A stretch of 64,000 nucleotides of DNA from Escherichia phage vB_EcoP_PhAPEC5: the sequence record NC_024786.1; one strand, 5' to 3'. Positions 15,227 through 27,756 of this stretch are shown piece after piece (within the stretch, counting starts at the first letter, position 1; every line of letters begins with the position of its first letter). Below the pieces are notes generated by a model. It saw only the letters and a program-made list of their open reading frames with translations. It was not told the DNA's origin and did no database searches. The position numbers and the translations under genes were made by a program.

Positions 15227-16897
15227 ATGCGTTACATCACCTCTCAGGATACTGGCAAGTATCCTATTGCTATCCTCGGTCATCAAATCCGAAGGGAGGA
15301 GATGATTAAAACCTACCTGCTGCCTTATGACCTAAGCATGGAAGATTTCATCTTCCTTGAGCTTCATTCTGCCCCAGGTAAGAAGAAGACTCCTGCAAGG
15401 GAGATTAAGGAGTTCATACAGCAGGAACTGCAACAAGTACTGGATGACGCAGAGACTCAGTACATTATCTGTACCGATTCTGACTACTTCAAAATACTGA
15501 CTAAAGAAGCTAAAGCAGAGGCTAACCTCGGCTATGTTTGTGATTCAGTATGGGGTAAGCAGAAGGTTATCTATACACCTAGCTACAGACAGGTCTTTTA
15601 TGATCCACCTGTAGTGAAAGCTAAGATTGCTCAGGGTATGGATGCATTACTTAACCACATTCGTGGGCAGTATGCTGAACCAGGACAGGGAATCATTGAG
15701 TTTGAAGCCTATCCGGATACACCAGAAAAGATTAAAGCCTGGCTAGACCAGTTGCTTGAGATGAATAAGCCTCTGGCTATAGACATCGAATCATTCGGTT
15801 TAAAGCACTATAACGCTGGTATAGGGACGATTACGTTCTGTTGGAGTAAGACACAAGGCATAGCCTTTAATGTGGACTACGAGCCGATTAAGGGGGCTAC
15901 TGAAGCACCCTATGGGCGTATTAACAGGAACGATGTTGTTCGTAACCTGTTACGTGAATTCTTCATTAAGTACACTCAACGGCAGATGTATCACAACATT
16001 AGCTATGACGTGTACATACTTATCTATCAGTTATTCATGGATAACCTGATTGATACGGAAGGCTTACTAAATGGCATGGAGATCATGCTACGTAATTGGG
16101 ACTGTACTAAGTTAATCACCTACCTGGCTACTAACAGTTGTGCCGGTAATCATCTTAGTCTGAAAGAACAGGCTCAGGAATATGCTGGTAACTATGCTCA
16201 GGATGATATTAAAGACATTCGTCTTATACCTAATGAGCAACTGTTACGCTACAACCTCATTGATGGTTTGTGTACGTGGTACACCTACGAGAAGCACTGG
16301 GATACTCTCATTGCTGATGACCAATTAGATGTTTACAACAACATCTTTAAACCAGCCTGCGAAGACATTATTCAGATGCAGTTAACCGGTATGCCCATGA
16401 ATATGGAAACCGTTAACCAAGTGGCTGAAGAGATGGAAACTGACAGGAACCAGGCTTTGAAAACTATTCGTGAGTCTAAGCTCATGAAGAATTTCACCCT
16501 GATGCTTCGTCAGGAATGGGTAGATGATAAGAATGCTAAGCTTAAGAAGAAGCAGGTAACATTGGCTGATTGTGACATTGAGTTTAATCCTAACTCCGGT
16601 CCTCAATTACAGAAACTGTTATTTGATTATATTGGCTTACCGGTTCTTGGTCTTACTAAGAGCAAGCAACCTGCTACTGACGGTGACACTATTAAAGCAC
16701 TGCGTACACATACGCAGAGTGAAGATGTTAAGGAACTGCTCAATGCACTTATCGACTATAAACTCGTGGATAAGATTATCACTAGTTTTATACCAGCTTT
16801 CAGGAATGCCCAACCGGGGCCGGATGGCTGGCACTATCTGTTCGGAAACCTTAATCTGGGAGGCACAGTCTCCGGTAGGCTATCGGCTTCAGAGCCT
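15227..16897 (+). CDS. DNA polymerase, family A, exon 1 (3'-5' exonuclease and N-terminal polymerase part)
   Basis: Exonuclease-like motifs (IDIESFGL, YNLIDGLCTWY); ORF ends with GRLSASEP, the first half of the Pol I GRLSSxxPNLQNIP motif; tracked ORF continues 7 codons into intron sequence (KINWAI stop). Confidence 0.75.
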
Positions 16898-17603
16898 AAA
16901 ATAAATTGGGCTATTTAAACCATGTGAATTCAGGGGAAACCCAGACCGGGCAATCCTGAGCCAAATCAACCATACCTGCCTTAGGAGGCACATGATGGAT
17001 ATCAAGAATCTGTACGAGAATACTGACCTATCTCAAGCAGAAATATCAAAGCGTTTGGGTATTAATTACAAAAAAGTCTCTAAATATATTATGGAGAACT
17101 ACAGTAAAGAATACCGCCAAAGCAGAAATGCAAAGTCTTACCGACGCTCCAAGCTGGGGAAAAATAACCCCATGCTCGGTAAATTCGGCAAAGACCATCA
17201 CAACTACAAAGGTTTAGTATCCGATAGTAAGGGCTACTTAATGGTACTTAAACCCGATTGGTATACTGCACGCAAAGGTAGCAAACATGTTTTTGCTCAC
17301 CATGTAGTGGTATGTGAGGCACTTAATATCAGTGAAATACCTAAGGGCTGGTGTGTGCACCATTGTGATGAAAATCCATACAACAACGACTTTGATAATC
17401 TTGTATTGCTAAGTGTTCCTGACCACGCTCGGTTACACTCAGCATTGAAAGGTGCAACGACTATCTCGAAAGAGAGTACACTCATGTGGGTGGAAGCGCA
17501 TGGCACGCCTTACTATCTGGCGTGATGATATAGTCTGCTCTGCATAGGAATATGCAGCAGTCGAAAGACGGGCATGGATTAACGACCCATGCTGAACAAC
17601 AGG
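16898..17603 (+). mobile_element. Group I self-splicing intron (predicted) carrying an HNH endonuclease ORF
   Basis: 5' exon ends in T pairing as U-G with intron GGGCT (P1); last intron base is G; P-like AATTCAGGGGAAA, Q-like AATCCTGAGCC, R-like GCAACGACTAT and S-like GATATAGTC elements; joining exons restores GRLSASEP-NLQTIP. Confidence 0.65.
16992..17525 (+). CDS. HNH homing endonuclease (intron-encoded)
   Basis: HNH core CVHHCDENPYNNDFDNLVLLSVPDHARLH; AGGAGG RBS at 16983-16988; lies entirely between the two DNA polymerase segments. Confidence 0.85.
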   Translation: MMDIKNLYENTDLSQAEISKRLGINYKKVSKYIMENYSKEYRQSRNAKSYRRSKLGKNNPMLGKFGKDHHNYKGLVSDSKGYLMVLKPDWYTARKGSKHVFAHHVVVCEALNISEIPKGWCVHHCDENPYNNDFDNLVLLSVPDHARLHSALKGATTISKESTLMWVEAHGTPYYLA

Positions 17604-27258: not shown

Positions 27259-27452
27259 CCTGAAGTCGCCAGGTACTTATGGCAAACGGGTAGTAACGAA
27301 CTAGTCATTCGTCAAACGCCCACCCAATTATGAGTCAGCAAGAACGCCTTCACTTAAACTTAAACAAAAAAGCTTAACGCAATAATTATGTAGGGGTATG
27401 TAAGGATTGCGAAGAAGGAGCCAGTTAGAGCCTGGCATGACTCGCCCATTAT

Positions 27453-27526
27453 GTCCGCTTAGCTTAGACTGGGAAAGCAACCGACTAATAATCGGAAGGT
27501 CACTGGTTCAAATCCAGTAGTGGACA
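27453..27526 (+). tRNA. tRNA candidate (74 nt; anticodon loop CTAATAA, apparent anticodon AAT)
   Basis: Manual cloverleaf: acceptor GTCCGCT/AGTGGAC (7 bp, one G-T), U8, D-stem GCTT/AAGC with GG in D-loop, 4-bp anticodon stem CCGA/TCGG, 5-nt variable loop, T-arm ACTGG-TTCAAAT-CCAGT, discriminator A. Confidence 0.45.
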
Positions 27527-27756
27527 CCCATTCAGCAGTAACATAGTCCTGATTGCATAGCACTCTAAAGACAACACTGGTAAGACAGTCCAGTGGCTGC
27601 TAATGTATTGTTATTCCCCTCGACGGGAATTTCGCTAGTGAAGGTAACACTTAAAAATCCAAACCCACGTCTTACTACTATCGGGCTATCAACCCACGGT
27701 CGCTTAACCCTATAGTGGTAGTAGTTTGACGGCCTGCCTCGTTGACTGCGTTAAAG

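Follow-up and report, generated by a model that had tools for sequence, protein, structure and literature searches.

Escherichia phage vB_EcoP_PhAPEC5 is a G7C-like coliphage (Gamaleyavirus, Schitoviridae, N4-like) whose family A DNA polymerase gene, a homologue of gp39, is split by a 706-nt insertion at positions 16898-17603 of the stretch of 64,000 nucleotides that we analyzed (record NC_024786.1, the window). The question raised by this locus is whether the insertion is an intron, with the two parts of the gene joined in the RNA, or a gene cassette that stays in the mRNA and leaves the polymerase in two pieces. We conclude that it is very probably a mobile self-splicing group I intron of subgroup IA2 that carries an HNH homing endonuclease gene, and by analogy with its homologues this particular copy would be expected both to splice and to nick.

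The polymerase ORF at 15227-16918 reaches GRLSASEP and then runs through KINWAI into a stop codon (TAA, 16916-16918), and the downstream ORF at 17589-18512 takes up the protein again with NLQTIP at 17604, 706 nt later, which is where a preliminary description of this DNA had placed the break. Both ORFs matched Pfam DNA_pol_A, at profile positions 11-128 and 124-303. Joining 16897 to 17604 restored the frame and gave 1671 + 909 = 2580 nt, which is also the length of the uninterrupted gp39 gene of G7C; the product has 859 aa, in agreement with the length of about 859 aa predicted earlier, and is identical to G7C gp39 at 855 of 860 aligned positions (stop counted). The alignment to G7C gp39 contained a single clean indel of exactly 706 nt, which lies between the Pro codon that ends GRLSASEP and the Asn codon that begins NLQTIP, and the intron-less G7C allele reads ...CAGAGCCA before the insertion point and AATCTAC... 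after it. Most related phages, G7C included, have an uninterrupted 2580-nt gp39. Within the 45 nt upstream and 66 nt downstream of the insertion, the sole difference between the exons and G7C is the last base of the upstream exon (A in G7C, T in the window), which is synonymous and provides the U of the U.G pair at the splice site. As this base is A in G7C and SP5M and T in ST4, which is without this intron, the exon-terminal T was rejected as a mark of intron-bearing alleles. Two other kinds of intervening element were also rejected: an intein, as the exon 1 frame is closed by the stop codon and Pfam shows no Hint domain, and a group II intron, as there are in-frame stops and no reverse-transcriptase domain. 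The Pfam matches inside the insertion were limited to HNH_3 and weak HTH matches. The features of the locus are listed in Table 1.

Table 1. Features of the interrupted polymerase gene, its intron and the endonuclease gene (window positions; the two strands of a helix are separated by a slash).
Feature	Position	Strand	Basis or remark
Polymerase exon 1, 557 codons, ends GRLSASEP	15227..16897	+	ORF list; Pfam DNA_pol_A; colinear with G7C gp39 nt 1-1671
Group I (IA2) intron, 706 nt, omega-G 17603	16898..17603	+	G7C indel; RF00028 partial matches; family model; covariation
Polymerase exon 2, 302 codons + stop, starts NLQTIP	17604..18512	+	ORF list; Pfam; G7C alignment
P1 hairpin	16893..16912	+	exon AGCCU + intron AA (16893-99) / internal guide UUGGGCU (16906-12)
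P3	16920..16926 (CCAUGUG) / 17497..17503 (CGCAUGG)	+	4/7 pairs changed on both sides; 99.3% of cells paired
P4 (16930-35 / 16954-59), enclosing J4/5 and P5 (16940-42 / 16948-50)	16930..16959	+	covariation; Rfam local match
P6	16960-61 / 17452-53	+	pair count
P6a	16966-69 / 17445-48	+	covarying at 4/4 pairs; ORF inside its loop
Two-tier hairpin over HNH RBS and start codon	16971..16994	+	local MFE fold
HNH homing endonuclease gene, 177 aa	16992..17525	+	Pfam HNH_3; phrog_7545; I-PfoP3I homology
J6/7 (GCAAC) and P7 5' strand (GACUA, 17459-63)	17454..17463	+	invariant in 20/20; matches Rfam consensus
P7.1 (17464-67 / 17472-75, GAAA loop), GUA linker (17476-78), P7.2 (17479-83 / 17488-92)	17464..17492	+	covarying pairs in both helices
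P8	17504-09 / 17519-24	+	both-sided changes at 6/6 pairs
J8/7 and P7 3' strand (UAGUC, 17531-35)	17525..17535	+	invariant GAUAUAGUC
P9 (GGAA loop)	17540-46 / 17551-57	+	both-sided changes at 5/7 pairs
P9.1, tentative	17560-62 / 17567-69	+	absent from MFE fold; region too poorly aligned for pair count
P9.2	17572-77 / 17587-92	+	both-sided changes at 5/6 pairs

The two boundaries have the bases of a group I intron, the 5' exon ending in T (16897) and the intron in G (17603), both as proposed before. The P1 helix suggested between AGCCT (16893-16897) and GGGCT (16908-16912), with a U.G pair at its end, was recovered and proved to be longer by two intron-internal A-U pairs (16898-16899 with 16906-16907), giving 7 bp in which U16897.G16908 marks the 5' splice site. 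Because the exons vary between hosts, P1 was assessed apart from the main pair count described below. All 20 members of the family that we aligned have an exon/guide helix of 5-8 bp, always with the terminal U.G, and over these members the guide sequence changes in step with at least 7 different exon contexts; the terminal intron G is likewise present in 20 of 20. Moreover, P1 was recovered in an unconstrained MFE fold. The P10 pairing of 16902-16907 with the start of the 3' exon (AAUCUA) forms at 5 of 6 positions, exactly the number claimed for it, so that P10 is weak in the window intron, and it is poorly conserved over the family.

The secondary structure that we derived for the window intron consists of P1 and P3-P9.2, with P2 absent. 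Sequence elements that the preliminary description had called P-, Q-, R- and S-like all found a place in it: the P- and Q-like elements are the two strands of P4, the R-like element is J6/7 with the 5' strand of P7 (17454-17463), and the S-like element is the 3' strand of P7 (17531-17535). The GACTA and TAGTC proposed to form P7 do pair as this guanosine-binding helix (17459-17463 with 17531-17535). For the P3-P9.2 structure, made up of 12 helices with 55 pairs, pairing was counted in an alignment of 20 homologues from which the ORF had been removed. Standard pairs were found in 97.8% of cells, compared with 29-41% when the partners were slid by 1-3 columns, and both-sided changes were found at 35 of the 55 pairs. 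The covariation score was 0.497 against 0.165 after shuffling, and the observed value was reached by none of 500 shuffles on any measure. P4 and P5 are 100% paired, with covariation at all three pairs of P5, and the P4-P5 region gave a local Rfam match to model positions 60-140. No variation was seen in P7, J6/7 or J8/7 over the 20 members, the self-splicing Pf-WMP3 intron among them, and P6a is closed by a short loop in the ORF-less relatives. The unconstrained MFE fold of the ORF-deleted window intron contained 57 of the 60 proposed nested pairs (z = -4.4).

The element therefore has a conserved P3-P8 core with a P4-P6 domain and a P3/P7 pseudoknot, besides the terminal U.G of P1 and the intron-final G, all of which are the marks of a group I intron. 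Since covariation, the tracking of exons by P1, the MFE fold and the family-model matches given below all agree, the RNA is a conserved, selected group I fold. P7.1-GUA-P7.2 lies between the 5' strand of P7 and the 3' strand of P3, and this arrangement, the same one used to recognize the subgroup in PMC3428280, makes the intron a member of IA2.

Searches with Rfam need some care at this locus. At the gathering thresholds, Rfam returned only one tRNA over the whole window and no group I match at 16898-17603, and the window intron stays below the RF00028 gathering threshold of 50 bits. A permissive local scan with RF00028 did find it with 38 bits (E 5.5e-8), in an alignment that was forced partly through the ORF, and a second local match of 17.7 bits covered the P4-P6 region. 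We attribute the sub-threshold score to the 472-nt ORF-bearing loop that sits in P6a. Indeed, three ORF-less homologues with the same core scored 84.7, 69.7 and 62.8 bits, and one ORF-bearing homologue was also above the threshold (56 bits); two of the three endonuclease-less relatives carry short annotated ORFs instead. As the local scan and the ORF-less homologues show that a P6a ORF lowers the score, we did not take the Rfam miss as a refutation. The RF00028 search that had been recommended was thus negative at the gathering threshold and positive in the local scan and for the ORF-less homologues, and the accompanying advice, that the lack of a significant group I covariance-model hit should count against an intron, would mislead at default settings. 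Default Rfam scans miss introns of this kind with an ORF in P6a, and for this reason one group has already reported 'no significant hits'. We also built a family covariance model from 18 relatives, with the window and Moonfish left out, and searched both strands of the 64 kb with it. Only two matches were obtained, both in this element, one to its 3' half (17368-17611, 143.4 bits, E about 1e-42) and one to its 5' half (16889-17097, 62.2 bits, E about 7e-18).

The ORF within the intron had been described as an HNH gene with its own AGGAGG and a 3' end lying over the R-like element, and all three parts of this description were borne out. The protein matched Pfam HNH_3 (PF13392) with 30.8 bits, above the cut-off of 24.8, and phrog_7545 with 1e-57; its N-terminus is HTH-like. 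The HNH motif residues H123, H124, D126, N131, N132, N136, H145 and H149 are invariant in 10 homologues including I-PfoP3I, and these residues together with the Pfam score place the protein among the HNH homing endonucleases. In the PhAPEC7 annotation the gene starts at the second ATG (16995). Compared with solved structures the protein gave nothing significant (best E = 0.83), and no sequence link to I-HmuI was found. The ribosome-binding site (AGGAGG, 16983-16988) lies in a hairpin of two tiers, in which 16977-16981 with 16986-16990 covers AGGAGG and 16971-16973 with 16992-16994 covers the start codon. Local MFE folding returned this hairpin for 12 of 12 relatives that carry the ORF, and compensatory changes occur in its inner stem. 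The ORF runs from the P6a loop through P6, J6/7, P7, P7.1, P7.2, P3' and P8 and ends at 17525, an overlap with the ribozyme core of about 80 nt, and therefore the conserved C-terminus of the protein (GATTISKESTLMWVEAHG) is encoded by the ribozyme core. Taken together, the earlier proposal of a group I intron with an HNH homing endonuclease is supported by covariation, by the ORF-less Rfam matches, by the family model, by the MFE fold and by the comparison with Pf-WMP3.

When the whole element, ribozyme and ORF, was compared with other phages, it showed 66-76% DNA identity (mostly about 70%) to insertions in their polymerase genes. Among these relatives are T7-like and other phages of Acinetobacter, Providencia, Pseudomonas, Dickeya, Pectobacterium, Klebsiella and Xanthomonas, together with cyanophage Pf-WMP3 and the N4-like Shigella phage B2. 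For insertions in RNA polymerase and primase/helicase genes, matches were obtained to the two ends of the element. This intron itself occurred, among 110 matching records, only in the two PhAPEC7 records and in Moonfish. Moonfish differs from the window intron at 27 positions, 26 of them inside the HNH ORF and 1 in the 172 non-ORF nt, and the 26 ORF differences alter 5 of 177 residues (protein identity 97.2%), whereas the exons flanking the intron show 15-17 differences per 100 nt. Divergence is thus much lower in the intron than in the exons next to it, which implies a recent transfer and an intron younger than the genes that carry it. The patchy distribution and the low divergence of the intron compared with the exons form a mobility signature that suggests homing of this intron.

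The nearest known system is the intron of PhAPEC7 (KF562340 / NC_024790), whose polymerase region is 98.4% identical to that of the window. It occupies the same position in the same gene, is likewise 706 nt long and is identical at 705 of 706 positions (99.9%), differing by one substitution at 17092, while exon 1 differs at 51 positions. In the PhAPEC7 GenBank record the polymerase CDS is joined, and the ORF is described as a 'putative HNH endonuclease inducing intron mobility, located in intron of DNA polymerase'; in the searchable literature we found no structural or experimental work on this intron. Among N4-like phages, the genome announcement of Pollock also gives an intron-encoded HNH in the polymerase (PMC4319500), and Shigella phage B2 (OM858838) has an intron at the same site between the Pro and Asn codons, with the GGGCU guide of the window and about 68% identity. 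B2 and Pollock are Schitoviridae with an intron-encoded HNH in the polymerase, as in the window, but belong to a different subfamily (Humphriesvirinae). The PhAPEC7 record and Pollock thus answer a question that the preliminary description had left open, namely whether a polymerase-site intron is known in N4-like phages. That description was accurate in almost all details.

The best characterized relative is the polymerase intron of Pf-WMP3, which self-splices and is an IA2 intron with no P2, a P7.1-GUA-P7.2 arrangement and an ORF from P6a through P7 (PMC3428280). Its HNH enzyme, I-PfoP3I, nicks the coding strand of the intron-less target 4 nt upstream of the insertion site (PMC3428280). The insertion point is that of the window, after the Pro codon of S-x-x-P/N-[LIM]-Q, called 'site 674, E. 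coli numbering', and the two introns share an HNH ORF from P6a to P7, sequestration of the RBS and an identical J6/7-P7-J8/7, with HNH proteins that are 46% identical. Pf-WMP3 differs in being a T7-like cyanophage, and its intron has 672 nt and is without P9.1 and P9.2. Furthermore, splicing and nicking were proven experimentally for Pf-WMP3, whereas for the window copy both are expected from its homologues. According to PMC3428280, introns in T7-like phage polymerase genes lie at site 676 in phiL7 and at site 881 in PhiI/W31 (Lee et al. 2009; Bonocora and Shub 2004, as cited there). These are also IA2 introns with an HNH ORF in P6a and belong to the core family of the window intron, with which the introns of phiL7 and of T7-like Vi06 align throughout; the phiL7 site is 6 nt downstream of that in the window, the Vi06 site is in the motif-B region, and the guide sequences differ accordingly. 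In our homologue set the same core is found in phiL7 and four other introns inserted between the NL and Q codons (site 676) and in Vi06, whose intron lies in the motif-B region; the Vi06 site probably equals site 881 of PhiI/W31. The polymerase introns of SPO1, SP82 and Bastille, which encode the nicking HNH enzymes I-HmuI, I-HmuII and I-BasI, are at the homologous site 674 (PMC3428280). Unlike the window phage, these are phages of Gram-positive hosts, and the comparison with solved structures detected no sequence similarity of their HNH proteins to that of the window.

An insertion that is not spliced would explain the locus differently, as an HEG cassette staying in the mRNA, with the polymerase made as two cooperating fragments, 563 aa at the N-terminus and 307 aa at the C-terminus (from ATG 17589). 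The in-frame ATG at 17589 is present, Moonfish is annotated with two separate polymerase CDSs, and a preprint of the Letarov group, which works on G7C (10.1101/542787), reports that an HEG insertion of about 800 bp in g39 of the G7C-like phage 10Gb gave no spliced product and two polypeptides. However, Table S1 of the preprint puts the 10Gb insertion at about 25420 of G7C, whereas the site of this intron is 25325, and other gp39 insertions map to G7C 25394 (ST4-type, 843 bp) and to about 25487 (SP5M-type, 695 bp). The ST4-type insertion follows gp39 nt 1739 in ST4, PGN829.1, U1G and phi G17, and the SP5M-type insertion follows about gp39 nt 1830 in SP5M and PD205, with copies about 77% identical in VEc25-like phages; the phage-collection matches to both types were to phages other than 10Gb. 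No group I signal was found in the ST4-type or SP5M-type insertions, whereas the window insertion has one. The preprint describes a properly spaced Shine-Dalgarno before the restart ATG in 10Gb, and the SP5M-type has GAGGAGG there (-12.3 kcal/mol), but in the window the anti-SD duplex reaches -3.5 kcal/mol and ATG 17589 is buried in P9.2, which leaves a separate C-terminal polypeptide with no usable signal for a restart. From its coordinate, stated size and SD description, the 10Gb insertion is therefore most probably not this intron but one of the other two insertions, to which the lack of splicing would then belong. With a ribozyme fold present and no Shine-Dalgarno before ATG 17589, the window insertion does not fit a free-standing HEG or 'fractured gene', and strong purifying selection on a full ribozyme fold with an exon-matched guide is hard to explain if it is never spliced. 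We consider a cassette retained in the mRNA very unlikely.

Slightly less credence still is due to an intron that, for all its intact ribozyme architecture, is spliced inefficiently or never in its N4-like host, as the preprint found for the gene 39 insertion of 10Gb, with the essential polymerase acting as two non-covalently associated fragments. The split point would then be inside the O-helix-proximal GRLSSxxPNLQNIP motif. If this were true, the G7C-like phages would be a natural series in which one enzyme is interrupted at three nearby sites and is restored through either the RNA or the protein. The least probable of the alternatives is that the intron is competent to splice while its endonuclease is no longer active, an immobile late phase of the homing cycle in which the intron is kept since its precise loss is rare. 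The RBS and start codon of the HNH gene are sequestered, and intron-bearing Gamaleyavirus-type genomes are few (three, the PhAPEC7 records and Moonfish, among the 110), both of which would suit such a phase, but the HNH ORF is intact at 177 aa with every motif residue conserved, the change of only 5 of 177 residues by the 26 ORF differences points to purifying selection on the protein, and the low divergence of the intron compared with the exons argues for recent transfer.

For the preferred reading, a mobile self-splicing intron, we propose the following course of events. P1 would arise by pairing of the internal guide (16906-16912) with the last bases of exon 1, placing U16897.G16908 at the splice site, and the P3-P9 core would fold round the guanosine-binding helix P7. 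An external guanosine would attack after U16897, and the freed exon 1, aligned by the short P10, would attack after omega-G17603, so that the exons are joined and the 859-aa polymerase is made with its GRLSASEP-NLQTIP motif restored. The P6a loop would supply the HNH enzyme from a gene whose RBS and start are held in a hairpin and whose last 80 nt or so double as ribozyme core. In a mixed infection this enzyme, by analogy with I-PfoP3I, may nick an intron-less polymerase allele a few bases 5' of the insertion site, and repair would then copy the intron in (homing).

The finding is one that is already known, with the intron annotated in PhAPEC7, that of Pollock published and the family characterized biochemically, and current understanding of group I introns and homing is unchanged by it. 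Its practical value lies in the annotation of the polymerase as a single spliced gene: the correct form is one joined CDS of 859 aa with the junction 16897/17604, rather than the two polymerase fragments annotated in several relatives (e.g., Moonfish, APK32 and phiB1_1). For the family as a whole, one IA2 core is common to phages of at least four unrelated lineages, and changes of the guide alone have directed it to at least seven exon sites, which lie in genes for polymerase, RNA polymerase and primase/helicase.

The polymerase gene that holds the 706-nt group I (IA2) intron in PhAPEC5 is interrupted at other positions in related phages. In phage ST4 an 843-bp insertion follows nt 1739 of the gene, inside PPGW|IFCGLDFAS and 68 nt downstream of the site of the window intron, and it is shared with phages PGN829.1, U1G and phi G17. 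It contains a 218-aa ORF for which we found no Pfam matches; a group I signal was looked for in the insertion and none was found, and there was no Shine-Dalgarno sequence ahead of the downstream ATG at which the polymerase frame could restart. The 695-bp insertion of phage SP5M lies about 160 nt downstream of the window intron's site (KVY|TDGYDGH), and copies about 77% identical are present in VEc25, AlfredRasser, Jura, PMBT57 and others. Its ORF carries HNH_3 and NUMOD4, a search for a group I signal in it was likewise negative, and a strong Shine-Dalgarno sequence (GAGGAGG) is followed by an ATG that reopens the polymerase frame. The SP5M-type insertion is a good candidate for the arrangement reported for the G7C-like phage 10Gb, in which the insertion stays unspliced and the polymerase is made as two polypeptides (10.1101/542787).

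The IA2 core of the window intron was also found, with its guide sequence re-targeted, in the RNA polymerase gene of Pseudomonas phage Draal03, the primase/helicase genes of Erwinia VL73 and Vibrio JSF38, and at other polymerase sites in Pakpunavirus ph0034 and Xanthomonas phiXacJX1; some ORFs in these introns bear other annotations, such as 'endonuclease VII'. In Acinetobacter phage KEN_02 the intron lacks an ORF. The DNA polymerase CDS annotated behind it spans just 309 nt and is succeeded by a gene annotated as an HNH endonuclease, an arrangement suggesting that the polymerase gene is interrupted a second time.

In phage G7C, gp41 and gp42 are separated by gp41.1, a free-standing gene for an HNH homing endonuclease. 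The homologues of gp41 and gp42 adjoin directly in the window, so no gene of the gp41.1 type is present between them. A tRNA gene in the window was assigned by ARAGORN as tRNA-Ile with anticodon AAT, which is uncommon among bacterial and phage isoleucine tRNAs.

Coordinates of features in the window and in related phages
Feature	Sequence	Position	Detail
HNH start-site hairpin, two-tier	window	16971-16994	encloses ribosome-binding site and start codon
HNH protein C-terminal ~24 residues	window	17454-17503	GATTISKESTLMWVEAHG...; encoded by J6/7-P7-P7.1-P7.2-P3'
gp41 and gp42 homologues	window	18814-19281; 19281-20261	region compared, 18814-20261
gp41.1 locus, G7C	L003	4924-5421	compared with window
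tRNA gene	window	27452-27530 (+)	Rfam 62.4 bits
Insertion, SP5M	L004	3330-4024	outside window
Insertion, ST4	L005	3240-4082	outside window
ORF-less intron, KEN_02	L017	1215-1403	
Same IA2 core at other sites	L019, L020, L021, L022, L016		

Within the window intron, the end of the HNH reading frame is dual coding, the same nucleotides forming part of the ribozyme core, and this stretch is almost without variation across the intron family, both as RNA and as protein. At the other end of the frame, all 12 of the relatives examined that contain the ORF have kept the predicted start-site hairpin, and it shows compensatory changes. Since the ribosome-binding site and start codon lie within this conserved structure, we suggest that translation of the endonuclease is repressed in the folded precursor RNA.
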